From IMG/VR virus record IMGVR_UViG_2529292922_000010: a DNA stretch of 64,000 nucleotides; one strand, written 5' to 3'. This DNA is from a virus (lineage: Duplodnaviria > Heunggongvirae > Uroviricota > Caudoviricetes). A program made the translations under genes and the position numbers. The notes beneath the pieces were generated by a model. It had not been told where the DNA came from, ran no database searches, and saw only the letters and a program-made list of their open reading frames with translations. Position 1 is the stretch's first letter; every line of letters starts with the position of its first letter. Below, piece after piece: positions 1,576 to 61,168 of the stretch.

Positions 1576-3060
1576 TTATTCATTAAGCCATGCCAGAGCT
1601 TCATCAACCTGCGCTTCGTCTTCGACGCTAAGCACTTCATCCTGGGGAACATAATCCGCCAGCATAGCGAAACAATATGTATCCCAATGGTCTGGTGAGT
1701 GCAGGTTGAGTTTTTTCTTCATATCCTCCTTACTCATCACCTTCCATTGACCTGCGGAGTTAATCCCTACAGGGATTTTCGACGCTTCCTCAATAGTTTC
1801 ATTACCCTTATCCAGTCTCATACGACCAGATTTTACGGCCTCTGCGGCTTGAACGTTGGCATAAGCACGTTTATCAAAGTACAGGCTCTTATCTTCACGA
1901 CTATGCATCTTTTTACCCCAGCGTATACGCTGTACGGTAATACCATAATACTCGTACATCAGATCCGCCGTTGCTTTACCCAGCCCATCGCCGTCTATCG
2001 CTATGGTGATATTTGGGAATCGCTCAGGATTACATTCTGCGAAAATTTTGGCGGCAAGCTGCGTTTCTGTAACGTCTGTGTATTCCAGCATTCGATAGTT
2101 GATTACACGGCGTTTATTTCTCTGGCCGGACACCATCATGATATTGATAACGGACTTATCCCGTCCCGTACCACCAGCAACGTCCACACATGCAAGCCAG
2201 CCCCATCCTTTGGCAATCTTGACTTTCCGCCGCGTCGCACGTTCAACCTCATCACGTCCAAGAAGGAAGCCATCCTGTGATTTAGGGAATAGTCCGCGTA
2301 CCTTAATCATGTACATAGGGTTATCACGCCCGCCGTACTCCGCCAGCTTCATTTTGATAAATGCTGGCGTTACCAGCGGTGATTCCTCACTGTTAAGCGT
2401 GATCGCCGTATAAACGCCATCAGGGTTACCAGGACGCTTGGCCAGTTTATGGTGAGTATCGTAGAAATAGCCGCTTGGGCGTGTAGGCTGTGACAGTAAT
2501 AAGATGCGGTTATCCTGTCCGGTAAGAGCACCGGTGATGATACCGAAAGCTCTATCACTGACACCGGAGGCTTCATCGATAATATACAGAAGATGATCTG
2601 CGTGTTCACCGGCGAGAGCTTCTTCACTTCCCAGACGAAAGCCCTTCGGTACTACAGTCCATACACCTTTACCAGTAACCTCATAGAAAGCGGTTTCTGT
2701 CAGAACAAAATAATCAGCAAGCCATGGAAAACGGCTGGTGGCAGTAGCCCAGTTTATCTTGATGTACTTGAATATACCGGTCATTACCTGCTGAATTTTG
2801 TTCGCAACGATAATGGCGCGGGCACCGGGATACATGATTATGAACAACATGATCATGATAGAAGTCATGTCTGATTTCCCGGTACCGTGACCAGACGAAA
2901 CAGATGTCTTGCTACCCTGTTCCTGCACAGACTCAATAATCAGATCCTGCTGCCAGGTAGGTGTTTTGCCGAACAAAACATCAGCGGCAGCAATCCAGTC
3001 ATAACGATATAGCGCCACCAGCTCGCGCCAACGTGGATCCGTTACGCAACTTCTGGCCAT
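1576..3060 (-). CDS. pacB: terminase large subunit PacB
   Basis: 494 aa, Walker [11 protein letters not shown]-terminal nuclease-type acidic residues; immediately downstream of pacA. Confidence 0.9.
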
Positions 3061-10851: not shown

Positions 10852-12060
10852 TCATTGATTCACCTCCTGCGGCGGTTCTGGTAGCGGCATCCAGTGTGAC
10901 GGTTTCCACGACGCACCAGGAATTATCCACCCATCATTAGCGTCAGGATGCCCCGGGATGTAAGTAGCCCATTTCATTCGCCAGTCACCTTTCCTGTCAA
11001 ACTCCACGGCAACAAGAACGGCTGTTTTGGTATTCGGCATTCGCTCACTACAGCTTATCCAACCATCCGGAGTTACCGGAGAATTGCCATTTACCAAGTC
11101 AGCTCGAACATATAGCGTGTCATCATGGTGCTGATTGTGGCTGCACCACGTTAATTCGCTTAACTCGCCATCTTCTGGCCATACTCCAGCTGTTTGCAGC
11201 CAGATATGGGCTGGCGCATCCTGGCAAGGTGTATTAACTGGAAACTTGTAAGTTTGGCTTACAGGTTGGCTACCCTGAAGCATGGCAGCGTGGCAGGCAT
11301 ACTCAACGCCCTTAACTGCATCTGCGCAGTAGTTATAGCGATTGCATTCCACTAATTTCCGTTTGAGTTTTTCAATTGCCTGCGCGACATCAGCCTGTAT
11401 TACAGGAACTGGCGGAACGGCTGTTTGCTCTCGAACGTCATTAGTCGCTATCGGTTCTGCTGCCAACTGACTGGCATATTTGTTAATGGTAACGATAAGC
11501 TCTTGCTCAGCCTCATCCAGACAATCACCGATACCTCGCCTGTCACCGTCAAAATCATCGAAATCAGCACGAATCTTGGCAACCTTCTGGATTGCGGACA
11601 ACACCTCACTAGGAATTACCGGATAGTTGGTTGACGTTTCCGCGATTTCCCGAAAATTATTGGTTGACGAATTCTTGTTTTCCCGAAAGTTTCCGGACTG
11701 AAGCATGGCGGCGCGGCAGGCGTTCCAGCCATCAACATAATCAAACGTATTGCTATCGTCTGGCTCGATTTCATCCGGCACTACCGGCTCTGGTTGGATA
11801 GTGACGTTGGCAAAGGCAGCACGCAAACCGGCCTTAATTTCCTCTACTTCATCAGCGCCTAGCGATGAATCTGACAATGCGTGATGGAATGCGTAAGCCA
11901 TGTCGTCGTTTACTGCAACCGGTTCTGCTTCCAGCGATGCCAGAGCAATTCGTGCCAGTTCTTCCGCTTCTTCTGCTGGCAGTACAACGTTGCTACCAGG
12001 TCCGTATGTTTCGCGCCACTGCTTGATTGTCAGCAGTCGCTCTTTGGTAATAGTGGTCAT
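10852..12060 (-). CDS. hypothetical phage protein with DUF551-like C-terminal domain
   Basis: 402 aa; C-terminal W/P-rich motif (WIIPGASWKPSHWMPLPEPP) typical of DUF551. Confidence 0.5.
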   Translation of the reverse strand: MTTITKERLLTIKQWRETYGPGSNVVLPAEEAEELARIALASLEAEPVAVNDDMAYAFHHALSDSSLGADEVEEIKAGLRAAFANVTIQPEPVVPDEIEPDDSNTFDYVDGWNACRAAMLQSGNFRENKNSSTNNFREIAETSTNYPVIPSEVLSAIQKVAKIRADFDDFDGDRRGIGDCLDEAEQELIVTINKYASQLAAEPIATNDVREQTAVPPVPVIQADVAQAIEKLKRKLVECNRYNYCADAVKGVEYACHAAMLQGSQPVSQTYKFPVNTPCQDAPAHIWLQTAGVWPEDGELSELTWCSHNQHHDDTLYVRADLVNGNSPVTPDGWISCSERMPNTKTAVLVAVEFDRKGDWRMKWATYIPGHPDANDGWIIPGASWKPSHWMPLPEPPQEVNQ

Positions 12061-12913: not shown

Positions 12914-13561
12914 TTACTTACCTCCTTTGATGCGAATGCCAGCGGCGCGCTCGGCTTCACTTTGTTCCCAAAACCACTTGTGAAGCGCCATAAGCTTTTC
13001 GTCAATCGGTGCATATTTGCGATTAAAGTAGGCCTGAGCATCTTTCTCAGATTCGTCCGGTAATTCGCCAGGGCCAAACAGTGTGTTATAAATCCATGCT
13101 AGTCCGCTCTTAGCGTCGCCAGTTGCCTGCCATTCGATAATGGCAGCCTGCATGACCAGAATGTTTTTCCCGATTAATAGGTCCAGTTCTTTGTACCGGT
13201 TGCGGATGTATGCATTCTCGCTTTGTAATTTTGCGTTGCGCTTTTCTGAGGCTTCAAGTAACGCCTGCTTATCGCGTAGAGCTTCTTCCAGTTCAGCAAC
13301 ATGGCATTCACTATCAATAAGGTTGTTCTCTGCTGCTTCAAGCTCAACACGCAGCTTCCCAACCGTAAGCGCAATCTCCTCGTTCTCCTGGTCGCGGCGT
13401 TTGATGTATTGCTGGTTTCTTTCCTGTTCATCCAGCAGTTCCAGCACAATCGATGGTGTTACCAGCTCATGGAAAAGGTCCGCGTCAAATCCCCAGTCGT
13501 CATGCATTGCCTGCTCTGCCGCCTCACGCAGTGCCTGATAGTCAATTGTCATTCTCGCCAT
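12914..13561 (-). CDS. hypothetical coiled-coil protein
   Basis: 215-aa ORF. Confidence 0.45.
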   Translation of the reverse strand: MARMTIDYQALREAAEQAMHDDWGFDADLFHELVTPSIVLELLDEQERNQQYIKRRDQENEEIALTVGKLRVELEAAENNLIDSECHVAELEEALRDKQALLEASEKRNAKLQSENAYIRNRYKELDLLIGKNILVMQAAIIEWQATGDAKSGLAWIYNTLFGPGELPDESEKDAQAYFNRKYAPIDEKLMALHKWFWEQSEAERAAGIRIKGGK

Positions 13562-14217
13562 CCTTCACAGTTGTAATCACTACAGCCTTCAAAATCATAT
13601 GGGCTGTACTGCCAGGTTATTTTTCCGCAATGCGGACAATTCCAACGCACCTTCCCGCTTCGCGACTTCTTTCTTCTGTTCTGCTCTTTCAACCAGTCAG
13701 GCATGACCAAACCTGCGCCCTGAACCATTGTTCTGCGGTTAAAGTTATTGATATTGAACGTCCGGCGCTTTGCTGCATCAGCAATGGAAAATGGCAACCA
13801 AACTATTCCTGGTTCGTTTTTGTTGACGACGCTAAAGATGGTCGCTTTACTGAAGTCATCTGTTGGCAATCCACCGTGTTGAAGCCAGTAAACATCGTTG
13901 CCGTTCCAGCTACCTTTTTTGTAGGCCACATACTCAGTGCAATCTGACTCAATCAGGCTTTCTGTAGGGATGTACTGGCAATCAACGTGCCACACAGCCA
14001 TTGCATCCACACTATCGGCACAAACAGGCTGATCGATATCTCGCCCACAATTCCAGGCTTTTTGGGCTTCTTCCAGCGTGTAAATATGAGCGCGATCGAT
14101 ATCAGAACTGTAACCATTGCCGTTATGGCAATGGAATGAGGCGTTATTACCCACAGTTTCACGCAAGCACATCATGTAAAAACGGTTACTCACTGGTTGC
14201 CCCCTGAATACGCTCAA
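13549..14217 (-). CDS. hypothetical Cys-rich protein (C-terminal CPHC zinc ribbon)
   Basis: 222-aa ORF, start uncertain. Confidence 0.4.
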   Translation of the reverse strand: MSVFRGQPVSNRFYMMCLRETVGNNASFHCHNGNGYSSDIDRAHIYTLEEAQKAWNCGRDIDQPVCADSVDAMAVWHVDCQYIPTESLIESDCTEYVAYKKGSWNGNDVYWLQHGGLPTDDFSKATIFSVVNKNEPGIVWLPFSIADAAKRRTFNINNFNRRTMVQGAGLVMPDWLKEQNRRKKSRSGKVRWNCPHCGKITWQYSPYDFEGCSDYNCEGWRE

Positions 14218-14887
14218 ACTCGATTACCCACACCCAGGGATTAGCGTTCCAACTATCTTCGCCATAAATTGATTTCCATAGGCTACGGAAACCTGGGTAA
14301 TGCTTATCGCCAATGAGGGTCGATTCTGTTGGTGCGCCCTCAGCCCTTGCATCGCATTCGCTGATATCGTTCAACCGCTCAACGCGCACGTTGGTAATTT
14401 CCACCAGGATGCGTGATGCCCATCGCGGCATGTGAATTGATGGACGCCACCCACCATCAAACTTTTCATTCACAGTGTGAGGTTTCCAGTCGGCATCATC
14501 GGGTATCGACCATAAGCCGTAATCACCAGGCTTTTGCTCACAACTGGCCCGATAAATCCTTGCTGCGCTCTTCTCATCGCCACGACAAAGGTTGTCGTTC
14601 CAGTCCACACTGCAACCATCCTCATTGCCTAATATCGCCCATGTTTCACGAACCCAAATTCGATCGCCGACGATACCAAAGGGGCAATTGAAAACACTGC
14701 TTACACCATCAGCCCCGTACCACTGAAAACCTGCATCAATTTTTCTAACCATCACTGGTGCTTCTGGACCAACTTCCGCAGGCTGATTTTTCATTATCCG
14801 CCGCGTCTGCGTTTTCCTTCCTTCGAGGATGGCCCGGACCATCTCATCGTTGAAAATCATGCCGCGCTCTTTCACTTCGCCTTTCAT
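14186..14887 (-). CDS. hypothetical phage protein (N-terminal GRKTQTRR motif)
   Basis: 233-aa ORF. Confidence 0.45.
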   Translation of the reverse strand: MKGEVKERGMIFNDEMVRAILEGRKTQTRRIMKNQPAEVGPEAPVMVRKIDAGFQWYGADGVSSVFNCPFGIVGDRIWVRETWAILGNEDGCSVDWNDNLCRGDEKSAARIYRASCEQKPGDYGLWSIPDDADWKPHTVNEKFDGGWRPSIHMPRWASRILVEITNVRVERLNDISECDARAEGAPTESTLIGDKHYPGFRSLWKSIYGEDSWNANPWVWVIEFERIQGATSE

Positions 14888-34708: not shown

Positions 34709-34943
34709 ATGGCTTCAAATCCGTACGGCGAAGCATAAAAACGCGATTTGTTCCGCTCTGATTCCCAATGAGGCAAAAGCCTTCTTTCACCTTGATAGCC
34801 TGCAAGTTGTCGAGTTCACCGCTGGTTACACGGCTATCGAACTCTTTGCGGCTTATTAGCTCCATCTGCATCTGACGACTCCAAACAAATGCCCATTGAA
34901 GGGCGATGGCTGAATGGTACCGAAAATACGACATAAAAAACAA
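34587..34943 (-). CDS. hypothetical protein upstream of hrdC
   Basis: 118-aa ORF following C1 operator; overlaps hrdC 5' region so start/extent uncertain. Confidence 0.35.
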
Positions 34944-34958
34944 TATTTATTAGAGCAA
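34941..34958 (-). promoter_or_regulatory. C1 operator
   Basis: AATATTTATTAGAGCAAT. Confidence 0.65.
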
Positions 34959-35040
34959 TTTTGCAATAGCTGAACCCCATGTAGACCACAAACAACCTGA
35001 GCTAAAATAACGAAAATCAGAGCAAATAATTGGTGATGAC

Positions 35041-35325
35041 GTGGCAAGTATTGCAACAAAAGACAGCATTTGTTCGGGGCACGGAGGATTCCCATCCAGG
35101 CCTCCTGTAGAGAGTGAACCACTACTTAAAGTCAACGGAGTCGAAGTGTTAGTTGATGGTAAGCAATATGCACAGCATACCGATGGAAACAGTACGCACG
35201 GTGGGCAAGCTATATCAACCAGGGCATGGTTTACCGTCAATGGTAAAGGGATCGTATGCGTTGGTGACCCTGTTTCATGCGGATCTACCGTAGCGTCCGG
35301 AGACGGCCTGGTTCAGGTAAGTTAG
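35041..35325 (+). CDS. PAAR-like domain protein
   Basis: 94 aa; SICSGHGG...STHGGQ...CVGDPVSCGS pattern reminiscent of PAAR spike-tip proteins. Confidence 0.4.
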   Translation: MASIATKDSICSGHGGFPSRPPVESEPLLKVNGVEVLVDGKQYAQHTDGNSTHGGQAISTRAWFTVNGKGIVCVGDPVSCGSTVASGDGLVQVS

Positions 35326-35333
35326 GAGATATC

Positions 35334-36122
35334 ATGCTGGAAAAAGACTACCAGTTATCCGCATATAAAAAATTGGCCGCCGCCGGTGGGATGAAAACAC
35401 CTGGTGCCATAACATCGGCACGAAACAGTGCTAACACAGCAAAACTGCTTGCAGAAGAATTGACCGGATTAATTCTGGATACAATTGTCTATCCCGACAC
35501 TATTACCAGCTATGTTTCAACGATCAGAACAACCACAACCGGCTTAACGAACATTGGAGAACTGGCAACTAAGCACGCGGACCTGTTGGCTGGTTATGCA
35601 GATCTGTCAATGCTGCTTCAACTCGATATTGGTTGGGATGTTTACTGCCGTGCTAATGAGCGAGAAGTATCAGAACTGCCGATCTCTATTGCCATTGGTG
35701 ATGTGACTATTACTAAATCGCTTGAGGACGCTGTAAACGCGCTTAATACATCAAGTTTAGTCGCTGCTATGGGGGAGATTAACCAGACCCTTAACACTGG
35801 CTCAGGAAGCTCGTCAGGCTCTGGTTCAGGCGGCGGCACTGCCACTCCCCCACCAGCACTAACAGAAGAGCAAATTGAATCTCTGAAAGTAGCAACTGAA
35901 CAGTTTGGGGTTGTATTCAACCAGACAACAGCGCCCACAACTGCGTTACAACAGCAGTATGAACGAGCGAATGAAAGCGCCAATGTAGCCATAACTGCTT
36001 ATAACCATGCTATCGGTACTGCGCTTGCGGAAGCATCAGCAAATAAGGCCAGCACAGCCAGCGCAGTTGCTGCTTTGGTTCCTGATTCTGTTCTTGATGA
36101 ATTAAACAAAGCGGCACAGTAA
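35334..36122 (+). CDS. hypothetical protein with Ser/Gly-rich linker
   Basis: ORF 35277..36122, start taken at MLEKDYQ with RBS GGAGAT. Confidence 0.45.
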   Translation: MLEKDYQLSAYKKLAAAGGMKTPGAITSARNSANTAKLLAEELTGLILDTIVYPDTITSYVSTIRTTTTGLTNIGELATKHADLLAGYADLSMLLQLDIGWDVYCRANEREVSELPISIAIGDVTITKSLEDAVNALNTSSLVAAMGEINQTLNTGSGSSSGSGSGGGTATPPPALTEEQIESLKVATEQFGVVFNQTTAPTTALQQQYERANESANVAITAYNHAIGTALAEASANKASTASAVAALVPDSVLDELNKAAQ

Positions 36123-36161
36123 CAAAGGACTTCATTGATAATTTTTCTTCAGGAGGAAGAC

Positions 36162-36584
36162 ATGTCATTCTTTTCTACGTTAAAAACAGCTTTGTCTTTG
36201 AAGGAGAAACTTGCTGCTACTGGTGTTCTTGTTCTGATTTGCGCACTTGTTGGTGCTGGGTTTGCATGGGAACGTCATCAGCTAAAGCAAGCCATCGAGA
36301 AAATTGGCAGTCTTGATCAGGCTGTTAAGGAACGTGATAAGTCAATAATGGATCTTAACCAGACCATTGAGACGATGAACAAAGCAGAGCAACATTTTCA
36401 CAGCCAGGAAGTGAAAAATGAATCAGAACAAGCCAAATATGCTGACAGGCAAATGGAACGAAAAGCTGAAGTTCAGAAACAACTGGTTGCGGCGGGTAAT
36501 GTTCGCCAGCGCATTCCTGCTGACACTCAGCGGTTGCTCCGGGAGTCGATCAGCGAATTTAACGCCGACGCCGACAAAGGTTAA
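36162..36584 (+). CDS. type-II membrane protein with periplasmic coiled coil (i-spanin-like)
   Basis: RBS GGAGGAAG before MSFFSTLK; single N-terminal TM helix; coiled-coil remainder. Confidence 0.45.
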   Translation: MSFFSTLKTALSLKEKLAATGVLVLICALVGAGFAWERHQLKQAIEKIGSLDQAVKERDKSIMDLNQTIETMNKAEQHFHSQEVKNESEQAKYADRQMERKAEVQKQLVAAGNVRQRIPADTQRLLRESISEFNADADKG

Positions 36585-36750
36585 CCACCCTGCCCCCAAA
36601 AGTGCATTTATGTGCAGAATGCCAGAGTTTAGCAGTGAATATTTCGATGATCTGCCAGCGTATATCCTCGATACAGAAACGATGCTGATGGGGATTAACA
36701 GGAAGAATCGCAACGTTAATGATTACAACCGCGCTATCAGCGGTAACTAA
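36499..36750 (+). CDS. small proline-rich lipoprotein overlapping the previous gene in another frame (o-spanin-like)
   Basis: MFASAFLLTLSGC lipobox; overlaps 3' end of the 36162 gene by about 85 nt. Confidence 0.35.
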   Translation: MFASAFLLTLSGCSGSRSANLTPTPTKVNHPAPKSAFMCRMPEFSSEYFDDLPAYILDTETMLMGINRKNRNVNDYNRAISGN

Positions 36751-36761
36751 AAGGGATTTTT

Positions 36762-37154
36762 ATGTCTGATAAAGTAACAGTAAAGCAAACTATCAACAAA
36801 GCGACTTCAATCTACAAAATTGAGCACATCACTGTTGGCAAGCCAGGATCTGAACAATACCGTCATGCTTTCGAGCTTGCCGCTCAGCTTGGTTTAAAAC
36901 ACCCGGATTGCATTGAGCATGTATTTCCGACCTATGCTGATGAGCAATGTACTCATGTTCTTACCGAAGAGGATTTTTTCAGCACTGAAGAACGAGAAGG
37001 CGTTGATCGCTGCATTGGTGTGATTTGCTCTTCAGTGAGTTATGAGTTATTCCCTAATGTCCATGAAAATGGTGGTATTGGATACCAATTCCTGTACGAA
37101 GGCGATGAGCTTAAATGTTATGAACATGGTCTTCTTATCGAAAGCGTAGAATAA
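36762..37154 (+). CDS. hypothetical protein
   Basis: 130-aa ORF followed by hairpin terminator. Confidence 0.5.
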   Translation: MSDKVTVKQTINKATSIYKIEHITVGKPGSEQYRHAFELAAQLGLKHPDCIEHVFPTYADEQCTHVLTEEDFFSTEEREGVDRCIGVICSSVSYELFPNVHENGGIGYQFLYEGDELKCYEHGLLIESVE

Positions 37155-37169
37155 TACCCTTCCTTCCAA

Positions 37170-37192
37170 CCGGCTATGTTGGCCGGTTTATT
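37170..37192 (+). terminator. rho-independent terminator
   Basis: AACCGGCTATGTTGGCCGGTTTATT. Confidence 0.6.
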
Positions 37193-37197
37193 CAACT

Positions 37198-37267
37198 TAT
37201 CCACAGCATAGATCCAATAAACAGATCCCAAAGAGAACCTAGGAAGATCCAAAGAAGATCCCGGATC
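37198..37267. other. oriR core: DnaA box plus five GATC (Dam) heptamer repeats
   Basis: TTATCCACA at 37198; AGATCC-type repeats with GATC at 37211, 37224, 37246, 37257, 37264. Confidence 0.75.
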
Positions 37268-37308
37268 GCTGTAAGCCGCGCCGTTCATGGCCTGAAACGG
37301 GATCAACA

Positions 37309-37412
37309 TTGACTATACGCGATTTTATGTTGACTGTGTGCGATTTTATGTTGACTGCACGCGATTTATTGTTGACTATACGCGACAGAAACGTTGACTG
37401 TACGCGATTTTA
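37309..37412 (+). repeat. incC iterons (five ~19-bp direct repeats, TTGACTNTNNGCGATTTTA)
   Basis: five tandem repeats at roughly 21-bp spacing upstream of repA. Confidence 0.8.
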
Positions 37413-37488
37413 GAGCCTGAATATTCACAGCTGTTGATAACAGTCATCTAAATTAACGCCAGGCCGCGCCACACATGGAGAAACCACG

Positions 37489-38373
37489 ATGCCGGAAGAA
37501 AGTAAAGGCTTCCTTAGCGTTGAAGAAGTTGCAGGAAATACAGGAGAAATCCACAGCCTGAAGCCCAATAACAACAGCACTATACAACCTATCGCTTTGT
37601 TGCGCTTAGGTGTGTTTGTGCCAACCTTAAAATCTACCAATGTGGCACTACGTCGCGGATCGTCAGTTACTACAAACACAACGAACGCAACCGAAGAACT
37701 ATCAAGCCTTAAAATTGTTGAGCAGGAAGGCTATGAGGGAATTGAAATTCATGGCCCACGCCTGGATATGGATACTGATTTTAAGGTGTGGGTGGGCATA
37801 ACCTCCGCGTTGTTTGACTACGCACCTGATGATGACGGCATAATCACCCTGCCATTCTCCGAGTTTGCCGATCGATGCGGCTATCCACGTAAGCGCCTTT
37901 CAAAGGCGTTCCGTAAAAGTATTGATGACTCTCTGACACGCATTCAGCAGACAGTTGTCAAATTCCGCTTCCCGGCGGCAAAAGGTCATCTCAATAACAT
38001 TAACGTCAACTTGTTGGCATATAGCAGCCTGAATACCGAGCTTGATGTTATCGAGATCCAGCCGCAGAAACAGCTATCTGAACTTTACTATGTTGACTAT
38101 AAGCGAATCCTGAAGCTGAAGATGCTGGATAAGCTCGGGCGCAAAGAGACGGCCAAGGTACTGTATACATTCTTTGAGGCTCTACCCGCCAACCCGGCAC
38201 CTGTCAGCATTGAGCGCCTTAGAGCAAGGCTTAATCTCAAATCATCCGTTAGCGTGCAAAATAGCGTTATCAGAAAAGCCATGAAAGATTTGGAAGCTAT
38301 TGAATATCTTAAATTTTCAGAGATAAAAAACGGCAGGAAAATCGGCTTCCAGATCCATAAGCGCAATCCATAA
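37489..38373 (+). CDS. repA: plasmid replication initiator RepA
   Basis: 294 aa; conserved segments TIQPIALLRLGVFVP and GPRLDMDTDFK resemble P1 RepA; flanked by iterons. Confidence 0.85.
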   Translation: MPEESKGFLSVEEVAGNTGEIHSLKPNNNSTIQPIALLRLGVFVPTLKSTNVALRRGSSVTTNTTNATEELSSLKIVEQEGYEGIEIHGPRLDMDTDFKVWVGITSALFDYAPDDDGIITLPFSEFADRCGYPRKRLSKAFRKSIDDSLTRIQQTVVKFRFPAAKGHLNNINVNLLAYSSLNTELDVIEIQPQKQLSELYYVDYKRILKLKMLDKLGRKETAKVLYTFFEALPANPAPVSIERLRARLNLKSSVSVQNSVIRKAMKDLEAIEYLKFSEIKNGRKIGFQIHKRNP

Positions 38374-38375
38374 TA

Positions 38376-38630
38376 TTGACTATATGCGATAGCGAGAAGT
38401 TGACTATAGGCGACATTCGTTGACGCTGGTGGATTTTTGCTGGCGTCAATATTCTGCAAGTCGCTATTGAGATGGCTTTTAGGGTCATTTCATCGCGTAT
38501 AGTCAACGTTTCTCCCGACAATATCTTACATAGTCGATCTTTGGTGGAGTTAAATCGACTACAGTCAACTTTTGACTGTAGTCACATCGCGCATAGTCAA
38601 CTATTCACATTAACTTTCGCGTATAGTCAA
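38376..38630. repeat. incA iterons (about nine copies in both orientations)
   Basis: TTGACTATATGCGAT, TTGACTATAGGCGAC, CGCGTATAGTCAA, CGCGCATAGTCAA, TTGACTGTAGTCACA and others. Confidence 0.8.
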
Positions 38631-38665
38631 CATTTGCGCGGTTCTCATCAAGCAGTGGTATTGAT

Positions 38666-39475
38666 ATGCAAGAAGAGAAACAACACTACCTCTACGTTCT
38701 GGTGCCGGAGAATGGAGATACTTTTAAAATCGGCATTTCATGTGGTCCATTGGCACGGTTTAAAGGGCTACAAGTGAGTCCCGATTTTGCGCTTTCACGG
38801 GTCTATCGTGGTACGCGTTTGGCAATAGTTAATCTTGAGCGGGCTTTACACGCAACCTTTTTCCCCTGGAATGCGCCGTGGGAGAAAAGCGCTGGTGGCG
38901 GGCATACTGAATGGTTTACACGAGAGTGTCTTGATAAGGTTTTGGCTCATATCGAATATCTAAATGATATGTGGGGAGGGATTCTCGAGCGCATTAAGTC
39001 GAATGATTTACTTCAGCGTCCAGTAGATGCTGCCCGCTCTTTCGAAAAAGAGCTGGATGTTACTTCTATCGTGACTTTCAAAGATGACGCAGGAATGAGG
39101 GACGTGGCTTATGTCTCCATATCTGGCTATGAACCGGACGCGATCCGCGCTCAATGTGAATTGCTGAAAGCAATGTTTATGCTTCGGACTAAATATTCCT
39201 GGGAGACAAGGCGGGTGTGCTTCCCTATGGAAGAGTTAACCGCCACCATTGATTCCCAGCTTTACCACGATAATCCAGAGAAGTTTTTTAGCCTTTTAGC
39301 CGGTAATGGGCTTAACTGTGTGTCCGGGCTGGGGCGAAGTAGAATCCAACATGCCTCGCTCTTCGGTCCCTTCTTTTACGATCGACACGGGTACTTTGAG
39401 GCTGAACTTCCGGCGCTTACGCGTGCCATAGATACTATCGATTTCGAACGATTATTCGCTGCTCTTAGCAAATAA
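38666..39475 (+). CDS. T5orf172 (GIY-YIG-like) domain protein with unknown C-terminal domain
   Basis: N-terminal YLYVLV...FKIGIS...RFKGLQ...ERALHATF...GGHTEWF pattern typical of T5orf172/MUG113 domain; own terminator downstream. Confidence 0.55.
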   Translation: MQEEKQHYLYVLVPENGDTFKIGISCGPLARFKGLQVSPDFALSRVYRGTRLAIVNLERALHATFFPWNAPWEKSAGGGHTEWFTRECLDKVLAHIEYLNDMWGGILERIKSNDLLQRPVDAARSFEKELDVTSIVTFKDDAGMRDVAYVSISGYEPDAIRAQCELLKAMFMLRTKYSWETRRVCFPMEELTATIDSQLYHDNPEKFFSLLAGNGLNCVSGLGRSRIQHASLFGPFFYDRHGYFEAELPALTRAIDTIDFERLFAALSK

Positions 39476-41949: not shown

Positions 41950-42062
41950 GATTTTACCTTCCTCCCCTACTCACGAAAAAAATAAAAAAATTGCTTGTCA
42001 CGAGAAAGTCAACAAGTGACTTTCAATAAAATCTCTTCCGAAAAGGGATTCACACAAGTGCC

Positions 42063-51648: not shown

Positions 51649-52323
51649 ATGAGTTATAAGGCAGGTGAGGTTATAATGAGAAAACTATTACTACCGTTAT
51701 TATTTATGGCTGGGACTGTTAATGCAGCATCAAGCGTAAAGGAGATTTGTACCGATTATACGAAATACCTTGGGCACGTTTACGGCTTTGCTGTCAGTCA
51801 AGACGAATCCATGCGCAAGAAGTTACTGTCAGATATGAAACGCCTTAAACTTTCTGAAGCGATGGTGCAGCAAGAACTGTATAAAGTCGCAACCAACGAA
51901 AATGCTAAATATCAATATTCTCGCCTGTTAAATCCCGACGCAAACGAGATCAATCGAAGCTCTTTCGATTATATGGTAAAGGCATGCGAAACCGCTCCTG
52001 ATTTTGCTATTCCTAGCTGGGGTGTGCTGGTGGCGAGCAATGCCGTTAATAAAGAAGACGTTGGAAGAAATGGCATTGATTCAATCAGAAACTCACCGGG
52101 AATGCGCCATCAAAACGTTCAGGGTACGCTTGAAGAACGGGCCAGGGGGCCGGGTACAAACTCCCCAATGGGAAACCTCTCCCCGGAGGAATTGCAAGAG
52201 TATAACCAACGGATGGAGCAGTATGAGAAAGCTGCACGCGAAAAAATGGAACAACAAAAAAACGGATCTCTTAATACTTTCCAGCAAGGTTTAAAAGCGC
52301 TTAATTTACCCTATGAATGGTGA
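51649..52323 (+). CDS. secreted protein (signal peptide) sharing a motif with Sit; possible superinfection-exclusion protein
   Basis: N-terminal signal peptide LLLPLLFMAGTVNAAS; internal RNSPGMR...VQGTLEERARG segment also found in Sit. Confidence 0.5.
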   Translation: MSYKAGEVIMRKLLLPLLFMAGTVNAASSVKEICTDYTKYLGHVYGFAVSQDESMRKKLLSDMKRLKLSEAMVQQELYKVATNENAKYQYSRLLNPDANEINRSSFDYMVKACETAPDFAIPSWGVLVASNAVNKEDVGRNGIDSIRNSPGMRHQNVQGTLEERARGPGTNSPMGNLSPEELQEYNQRMEQYEKAAREKMEQQKNGSLNTFQQGLKALNLPYEW

Positions 52324-52374: not shown

Positions 52375-52851
52375 ATGCGCATCAAACGATTTTTACTAGT
52401 TATTGCTTTGCTTACTCCGTTTTCATCAATGGCAAATGTAAGCAAATGGTCAACCGGCGAGACTCATGGTGTTCGTTCTTATGCTGTTTCCAGCAAAGAT
52501 AATTATACGCTTACATTTGAGTGCGATGTTGGATTTAATAATACGGATCCCAATCAAGTAGGAACACGACTACTCACTCTCATGAAAACAGAACCTGGCG
52601 GTGAGTCATTTGATGCTAAAAAAGAACAAATAACGCTGAAAGTTGGTGATGATGAATATCCTATCAGTTCTATCGGTTCCTCTGTGGGTGATAGTTACTG
52701 GTATGGTTTTTGGTCAGATACCCCTGATATGGAAGTTAAAACATTCGATGCATACGTAGACGGAAAAAAAATCGCAACATTTACGCTACGTAAGGCCGCA
52801 GAGCTTTTCAACGCGGCACCTGAAGATGGCTGCCTGAAGCGCGCAAAATGA
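52375..52851 (+). CDS. secreted protein (signal peptide)
   Basis: MRIKRFLLVIALLTPFSSMA signal peptide. Confidence 0.5.
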   Translation: MRIKRFLLVIALLTPFSSMANVSKWSTGETHGVRSYAVSSKDNYTLTFECDVGFNNTDPNQVGTRLLTLMKTEPGGESFDAKKEQITLKVGDDEYPISSIGSSVGDSYWYGFWSDTPDMEVKTFDAYVDGKKIATFTLRKAAELFNAAPEDGCLKRAK

Positions 52852-61090: not shown

Positions 61091-61168
61091 CAATCACCCC
61101 GTCCGCAGGGCGGGGTGACAAGTTACTTATCTTACAATGAGGCTTCACAACATTGATTAGGGAAAATC

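Follow-up and report, generated by a model that had tools for sequence, protein, structure and literature searches.

Overlapping genes ppfA and mlp of a P1-like phage-plasmid probably encode a two-component spanin of the P2 LysB/LysC type

Background

Can a small membrane protein and a lipoprotein, encoded in overlapping reading frames beside a plasmid replication origin rather than in a lysis cassette, be the two halves of a spanin? The question is raised by a 64,000-nucleotide (nt) stretch of phage DNA (IMG/VR record IMGVR_UViG_2529292922_000010; hereafter the window), in which the gene ppfA is overlapped at its 3' end by a second gene, mlp. A first-pass annotation, made from the letters alone, suggested that the pair resembles an inner-membrane spanin (i-spanin) together with a spanin of the outer membrane (o-spanin). 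According to the criteria of Summer et al. 2007 and Kongari et al. 2018 (PMC6139136), a two-component spanin consists of a small i-spanin, with a single N-terminal transmembrane helix in type II topology and a mostly helical periplasmic domain, and a small o-spanin lipoprotein, with a lipobox Cys and no Asp at position +2. At least one periplasmic Cys is available for a homotypic intermolecular disulfide, and the o-spanin gene lies inside the i-spanin gene, overlaps it or follows it directly downstream; functionally, the pair is needed to disrupt the outer membrane or complements lambda Rz/Rz1 mutants. Location in a lysis cassette is typical, but not defining.

We put at about 85% the probability that ppfA and mlp encode a two-component spanin of the overlapped P2 LysB/LysC type in a P1-like phage-plasmid. 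This reading is carried by the identity of the two proteins with those of phage P1, by their anatomy, by selection on both reading frames, and by the homology of Mlp to LysC of phage P2.

Results and discussion

Identity of the gene pair

Positions 35200-38500 have 94-98% DNA identity to P1, P7, RCS47, SJ46 and others, and, judged from its DNA, the window is a P1-like phage-plasmid. The P1 reference names the pair ppfA (gp064) and mlp (gp063). PpfA of the window is 100% identical to P1 PpfA, and the same sequence stands in the SpaninDataBase entry. The mature form of Mlp is likewise 100% identical to that of P1, the two substitutions in the precursor (S7N and V32A) both lying in the signal-peptide region. 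The flanking genes follow in the same order as in P1 (upfC-upfB on the 5' side, upfA-oriR on the 3' side), the overlap and its frame are also the same, and the sole difference is the adjoining replicon.

The overlapping membrane-protein/lipoprotein pair is therefore the already described and catalogued P1 spanin pair, since SpaninDataBase, Bednarek et al. 2022 (PMC9025707) and GenBank records already name ppfA and mlp as spanin genes. Kongari et al. 2018 (PMC6139136, Table S1, SpaninDataBase) listed P1 PpfA/Mlp as an overlapped ("ovl") i-spanin/o-spanin pair of family "P1", the i-spanin lacking a periplasmic Cys and the o-spanin having one, and reported no other P1 spanin candidate in that table. 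For P1 Mlp, the same table notes a "too long signal sequence", a LipoP cleavage at position 39 and no PROSITE hit. Bednarek et al. 2022 described the P1 spanin genes as partly overlapping and lying "in yet another unlinked operon" relative to the lysis genes; where that paper treats the identification, it refers to predicted features of the products and cites Summer et al. 2007. The assignment was first made by Summer et al. 2007. In relatives, the GenBank feature names include ppfA, mlp, "Rz-like spanin", "outer membrane lytic protein Rz" and "outer membrane lipoprotein Rz1". The spanin-like reading of the first-pass annotation thus agrees with the published assignment of the same genes and with the Rz-like spanin annotation of the PHROG profiles that the two proteins match.

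Anatomy of PpfA and Mlp

The features of the pair are as follows.

36151-36156, plus strand: Shine-Dalgarno sequence AGGAGG of ppfA, read from the sequence
36162-36584, plus strand: ppfA, i-spanin candidate of 140 residues, identical to P1 PpfA, matching phrog_89 over its full length at E=5e-25
36210-36269, plus strand: predicted single N-terminal transmembrane helix of PpfA, residues ~17-36, by Kyte-Doolittle hydropathy, within AlphaFold2 helix 13-110
36418-36750, plus strand: mlp, o-spanin candidate in the +1 frame, a 110-residue precursor from the longest ATG (P1 annotation), matching phrog_30284 at E=2e-77 and P2 LysC by BLASTP
36487-36584, plus strand: dual-coding core, the C-terminus of PpfA and the signal peptide and N-terminus of Mlp, from a DNA alignment of relatives
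36526-36537, plus strand: lipobox L-S-G-C, with the acylated Cys at codon 36535-36537 followed by Ser, kept in all relatives
36535-36747, plus strand: mature Mlp, 71 residues, identical to mature P1 Mlp

PpfA is a small protein with one hydrophobic stretch only (the Kyte-Doolittle 19-residue maximum is 2.35, at residue 17), and its N-terminal flank is basic, which suggests a type II topology with the N-terminus inside and the C-terminus outside. The AlphaFold2 model, built on an 18-sequence alignment, has a helix at residues 13-110, a short break and a second helix at residues 120-138, with a mean predicted local distance difference test score (pLDDT) of 69; the long helical part would form a periplasmic coiled coil. 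The description of PpfA as a 140-residue protein with one N-terminal transmembrane helix therefore holds, and the small size, single N-terminal type II helix and mostly helical periplasmic domain are those of an i-spanin. PpfA has no Cys outside the membrane helix. Its C-terminal ~30 residues are extremely conserved, a finding that fits an interaction surface and a dual-coding constraint alike and that these data cannot assign to one or the other. One variant, P0012, is 84% identical to PpfA overall, with the first ~22 residues swapped for unrelated sequence; this N-terminus may be recombinant or an assembly artefact.

In the +1 frame relative to ppfA, no stop codon occurs from 36415 until the one that ends at 36750, and mlp runs 166 nt past the end of ppfA, an arrangement that belongs to the "overlapped" class of spanin genes. 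The lipobox LTLSG|C is followed by Ser, and the product is a small lipoprotein with the Cys of an o-spanin and no Asp at +2. Because Ser rather than Asp comes after the lipobox Cys, sorting of Mlp to the outer membrane is implied as a prediction. A second Cys, Cys66 (position 27 of the mature protein, codon 36613-36615), lies in the motif FMCRMP and is invariant across all lineages examined; it is the periplasmic residue available for a homotypic disulfide, which is predicted. The lipobox LTLSGC was correctly read in the first-pass annotation, whereas its description of the lipoprotein as proline-rich is only moderately true: mature Mlp has 6 Pro in 71 residues, 5 of them within the first 21.

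Selection on both reading frames

The first-pass annotation had proposed, as a check, that conservation of both frames be sought in related phages. Loci of diverged relatives were obtained via exact protein look-up, and seven diverged lineages were compared: five with ~60% identity in PpfA (L086-L090; phage-plasmid contigs from Cronobacter, Klebsiella aerogenes, Salmonella and others), and two far more distant ones that were found by profile search only (L097/L098 at E=4e-22 and L099 at E=3e-8). In all seven, an open +1 frame of 111-127 codons spans the 3' end of the ppfA homologue. The lipobox is kept in each of them, as LTL[SN][GA]C or LSLSSC, as are the second Cys (FMC[RT]MP or SMCTLP) and the C-terminal NRKN.NVN.YN motif of Mlp. 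Among close relatives, 80 of 83 loci are colinear, and both open reading frames (ORFs) and the lipobox Cys are intact in 80/80. In a published comparison of 77 P1-like phage-plasmids, mlp and ppfA were among 21 extremely conserved genes (PMC9603915). Scans of genome contigs (3 loci) and of viral contigs returned near-identical loci only and no diverged relatives.

The dual-coding core is nearly invariant in DNA among relatives whose PpfA is ~60% identical. Variable sites were counted by codon position after the DNA of the window, P1 and L086-L090 had been aligned. Third positions of ppfA codons vary at 73/84 sites in 36165-36417 and at 20/23 in 36418-36486, but at only 11 of 32 in 36487-36581 (Fisher p=7e-8 against the 73/84 upstream). 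This collapse of third-position variation in the overlap is the signature of a second coding constraint. Downstream of ppfA, in the part that codes for Mlp only (36585-36747), 41/55 third positions are variable against 26/108 at positions 1 and 2 (p=1e-9), so that here the mlp frame is under purifying selection of the ordinary kind. Selection acts on both frames, and the conservation that the first-pass annotation asked about is present.

Relationship to other spanins

The detectable kinship of the pair is with LysB and LysC of P2, and it is clearer on the lipoprotein side. Mlp matches phrog_456 at about 2e-5 to 4e-5, a profile that P2 LysC matches at 2e-31, and P2 LysC in turn matches phrog_30284, the profile of Mlp, at 5e-4; the PHROG matches are therefore reciprocal. 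PpfA shares phrog_89 with P2 LysB (6e-61). All of the matching profiles are annotated as Rz-like spanin, and from these scores phrog_89 and phrog_456 evidently represent the P2 LysB and P2 LysC families, respectively. In direct comparison, Mlp is 37% identical to P2 LysC over 68 residues (BLASTP E=5e-8), and hhalign gives a probability of 85% (E=6e-6). The alignment covers the signal peptide, the lipobox region, a PTP motif and the C-x-MP cysteine, and Mlp is evidently homologous to P2 LysC. The gene layout is also alike, in that P2 lysC overlaps lysB by 146 nt in the +1 frame and runs past the end of the i-spanin gene, and both pairs are non-essential. They differ in location: in P2, lysBC follows the holin and endolysin genes within the lysis cassette, whereas in P1 there is no linkage of ppfA and mlp to lyz and lydAB.

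When 1.84 billion representative proteins were searched with a profile, only 33 clusters came up, and P2 LysB-like proteins were not reached; the PpfA family proper is therefore small and narrow. A sequence search of the PDB found no match for PpfA or Mlp.

With lambda Rz/Rz1, the pair shares its class, namely a type II, helical inner-membrane protein and an outer-membrane lipoprotein encoded in the +1 frame with a periplasmic Cys. However, the whole of Rz1 lies within Rz, whereas mlp runs on past the end of ppfA, and Rz has two periplasmic Cys where PpfA has none. Alignment of lambda Rz with PpfA was not significant (hhalign probability 1.6%), PpfA has no match to the Pfam family Phage_lysis, and the best PHROGs of lambda Rz and Rz1 (phrog_13 and phrog_3198) differ from those of PpfA and Mlp. 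Membership of the pair in the lambda Rz/Rz1 sequence family was therefore rejected, and since homology to Rz/Rz1 is not detectable, the "Rz/Rz1" labels in GenBank are functional analogies. The pair is placed in the two-component spanin class, with an overlapped layout like that of P2 LysB/LysC and with homology to LysC on the lipoprotein side. Spanin genes away from the holin and endolysin genes are also found in T4 (pseT.3/pseT.2; PMC6139136, Fig. 8 legend). As in the P1 pair, the T4 genes are unlinked to the lysis genes, and Cys is found in the o-spanin only, the i-spanin having none in the periplasm; unlike the P1 pair, the T4 genes are separated rather than overlapped, and the o-spanin has two Cys.

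Translation start of mlp

Three codons can be considered as the start of mlp: ATG 36418, TTG 36487 and ATG 36499. They give overlaps with ppfA of 167, 98 and 86 nt, respectively, and the mature lipoprotein is the same for all three. The first-pass annotation had chosen ATG 36499 and an overlap of about 85 nt in a different frame. The frame stands, but 86 nt is true for that start only, and ATG 36499 is the least supported of the three: at this position the ~60% relatives have Leu and two close relatives have GTG, and initiation there would give a 12-residue signal peptide without a basic residue.

ATG 36418 is the start annotated in P1, and a Shine-Dalgarno-like AGGAAG (36406-36411) lies six bases upstream. 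The 23-residue extension that it adds is 29% conserved, imposes no constraint on the synonymous sites of ppfA and results in a 39-residue signal peptide. From the codon-position analysis it had been argued that translation cannot start at this ATG; that claim was softened, as an ATG with a Shine-Dalgarno-like motif recurs at the matching distance, 38-40 codons before the lipobox Cys, in four diverged lineages. The aligned counterpart of TTG 36487 is an ATG in the ~60% relatives, a TTG in L097 and Met1 in P2 LysC. Initiation there would yield a canonical 16-residue signal peptide that fully satisfies the PROSITE-type lipobox rule; no Shine-Dalgarno sequence was found for this codon.

It is conceivable, though on balance unlikely, that the P1-type o-spanin is translated from two starts, namely the upstream ATG with its Shine-Dalgarno motif and the start-capable codon 16 codons before the Cys. 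If so, export kinetics could be different for the long and the short precursor, which would tune the supply of spanin, in the manner of dual-start holin/antiholin genes.

Proposed function and alternative explanations

The model of lambda Rz/Rz1 function, as summarised in PMC6139136 and PMC9025707, suggests by analogy how the topology, complex formation, disulfide and membrane fusion of the P1-type pair might work. PpfA would be anchored in the inner membrane via its N-terminal helix, its long helical domain reaching into the periplasm, and Mlp would be exported, receive its lipid at the Cys of codon 36535 and be sent on to the outer membrane. Across the periplasm, PpfA and Mlp would bind each other through their C-terminal parts, Mlp being probably dimerised via a homotypic disulfide of its lone conserved periplasmic Cys. 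Once the signal-arrest-release (SAR) endolysin Lyz had removed the peptidoglycan, the complexes would collapse, the inner and outer membranes would fuse, and the phage would be released. Knockdown of mlp or ppfA by CRISPR interference (CRISPRi) leaves P1 viable, and plaques still form (PMC10695390); this agrees with the published statement that laboratory cultures, when shaken, can lyse without spanins (PMC9025707).

Several points weigh against the spanin assignment. The spanin function of P1 ppfA and mlp was not verified by experiment (PMC9025707). The link between PpfA and LysB is the weaker one and depends on the broad PHROG profile phrog_89: pairwise comparison of PpfA with P2 LysB was not significant (BLASTP E=58; hhalign probability 1.2%), and PpfA scores 18.2 bits on the LysB model of NCBIfam (TIGR03495), for which the cut-off is 92.75. 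Mlp, too, scores below the cut-off of its LysC model (NF038368; 14.3 against 27 bits), and a Pfam search at E<=1 found no family for either protein. As for transcription, only predicted sigma-70 promoters (P1ppfA and P2ppfA) are annotated for ppfA in the P1 record, and a late-promoter (Lpa-type) motif derived from the P1 late promoter LP23, AAGTNACTT-N4-TAAAAT, had no match upstream of upfC, upfB or ppfA; late expression of the pair is therefore not established.

These transcriptional findings would suit a prophage-expressed envelope module with no role in lysis, made in the lysogen from sigma-70 promoters and serving in superinfection exclusion, receptor masking or serum resistance (compare lambda Bor and T5 Llp), as would the position of the genes beside the plasmid maintenance region and the lack of an effect of knockdown on plaque formation. 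We regard such a module as quite improbable, given that Mlp is homologous to an o-spanin, that the +1 overlapped arrangement is the same as in lysB/lysC, and that the lone periplasmic Cys and the paired conservation of the C-termini fit the spanin model. Moreover, the promoters are predictions, and a generic sigma-70 scan of 34600-37500 gave nothing above chance, with fewer promoter-like sites than in shuffles. (A terminator scan of the same interval gave a count within about one standard deviation of the shuffle mean.) The absence of a CRISPRi phenotype and of experimental proof of activity could also be taken to indicate a degenerate or redundant remnant, itself inactive, with another product disrupting the outer membrane in P1. 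This is very improbable in view of the purifying selection on both proteins across lineages, of the intact ORFs in 80/80 colinear close relatives, of the place of the pair among the most conserved P1-like genes, and of the lack of any other P1 spanin candidate in SpaninDataBase.

It might also be held that only ppfA is real, the +1 frame being open by chance, or holding just a short gene further downstream, a stub of 43-46 residues that begins after the lipobox; gene callers and several GenBank records indeed call an ORF of that size (window 36610-36750) or nothing at all. This is hardly credible, and the data already contradict it: the full frame with its lipobox Cys is kept in seven diverged lineages, the synonymous variation of ppfA is suppressed exactly over the signal peptide and mature N-terminus of Mlp, and homology to P2 LysC extends over the signal peptide and the region of the lipobox.

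Genomic context

The neighbouring features are as follows.

35041-35325, plus strand: upfC, PAAR-like (T4 gp5.4-like), conserved upstream context, start of the gene string
35277 or 35334 to 36122, plus strand: upfB, conserved upstream context
36762-37154, plus strand: upfA, a gene of unknown function between mlp and oriR, variable or replaced in relatives
37309-37410, 38371-38416 and, inverted, 38491-38636: iterons TTGACTNTNNGCGA, read from the sequence
37489-38373: repA, RepFIB-like
38666-39475: T5orf172/GIY-YIG-type gene with repA on one side and parA on the other, an arrangement shared with RCS47 and SJ46

The placing of the pair next to oriR is borne out by the iterons at 37309-37410 and by repA, with upfA in between. 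Similarity to P1 and P7 stops near 37282, inside oriR, and the replicon of the window resembles those of RCS47 and SJ46. All P1-like lineages examined have upfC-upfB-ppfA-mlp in this order, with a variable gene next and the replication genes after it, and "repA and upfA" was reported as one of eight hypervariable regions (PMC9603915). Since the gene order is kept while the replicon is exchangeable, the adjacency to oriR reflects the mosaic structure of the genome and has no functional link to replication.

The window corresponds to MH422554 coordinates 94839 to 31481, and in our placing lyz (13806-14405) and the lydB region (about 23302-24071) of MH422554 therefore fall outside it. The pair lies between upfB and upfA/oriR, not in a lysis cassette. 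The first-pass annotation was right about this location; it is no anomaly, since such a position is known for P1 itself and for pseT.3/pseT.2 of T4.

The slot between mlp and the replicon varies in the diverged lineages, where a gene of the Phage_gp49_66 family (PF13876) occurs instead of or besides upfA, sometimes with extra small genes. The positions are about 5597-5966 in L086 and L088-L090 and 4608-5226 in L097; in L087 no gene is called there. Upstream, the upfB ORF, if counted from ATG 35277, shares 49 nt with upfC, but the gene probably starts at ATG 35334, because the PHROG match begins at residue 20 and other records start later.

A match to the C1 operator lies at 34943-34959 (minus strand), between uhr and upfC, and is equivalent to Op68/Odmt of P1. 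With the P1 C1 operator consensus ATTGCTCTAATAAATTT and up to 3 mismatches, the window has 13 matches against 0.28 expected. The relaxed late-promoter pattern AAGTNACTT-N(3-6)-TANNNT has only two matches in the window, both on the plus strand: that at 42014-42032 corresponds to LP23, upstream of the major head gene, and that at 61120-61138 lies in the tail-fibre region.

Annotation of the pair in public records

The significance of the locus is mainly a matter of annotation hygiene, in that stub calls of mlp are widespread and three codons compete as its start. In the GenBank records MH422554 and RCS47, mlp is called as a stub of 43-46 residues that starts at or after the internal Met of FMCRMP, past the lipobox. 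Stub coordinates are 2908-3048 in locus L002, 21417-21548 in L093 and 5431/5449-5589 in L086-L090. The stubs of diverged relatives have 46 or 52 residues, and in L087 mlp is not called. The RefSeq record of P1 labels mlp as "Rz-like spanin" and leaves PpfA unnamed, and the text of Bednarek et al. 2022 swaps the i- and o-spanin labels of the two genes. As the stubs lack the signal peptide and ppfA is left unnamed, automated surveys will miss the P1-type spanin. Where "Rz/Rz1" labels are used, they should be read as reflecting function and not sequence family.

Other features of the window

Five segments of the window lack a BLASTN alignment of at least 300 nt to MH422554: 7908-9088, 10364-11916, 12764-13491, 32382-32951 and 51578-52852. 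The unmatched segments include a DUF551 protein (10852-12060) and an Ead/Ea22-like protein (12914-13561), and those between 7.9 and 13.5 kilobases sit where MH422554 has short hypothetical and Ea-type genes. Two further unmatched ORFs, 51649-52323 and 52375-52851, have N-termini that by eye resemble signal peptides.

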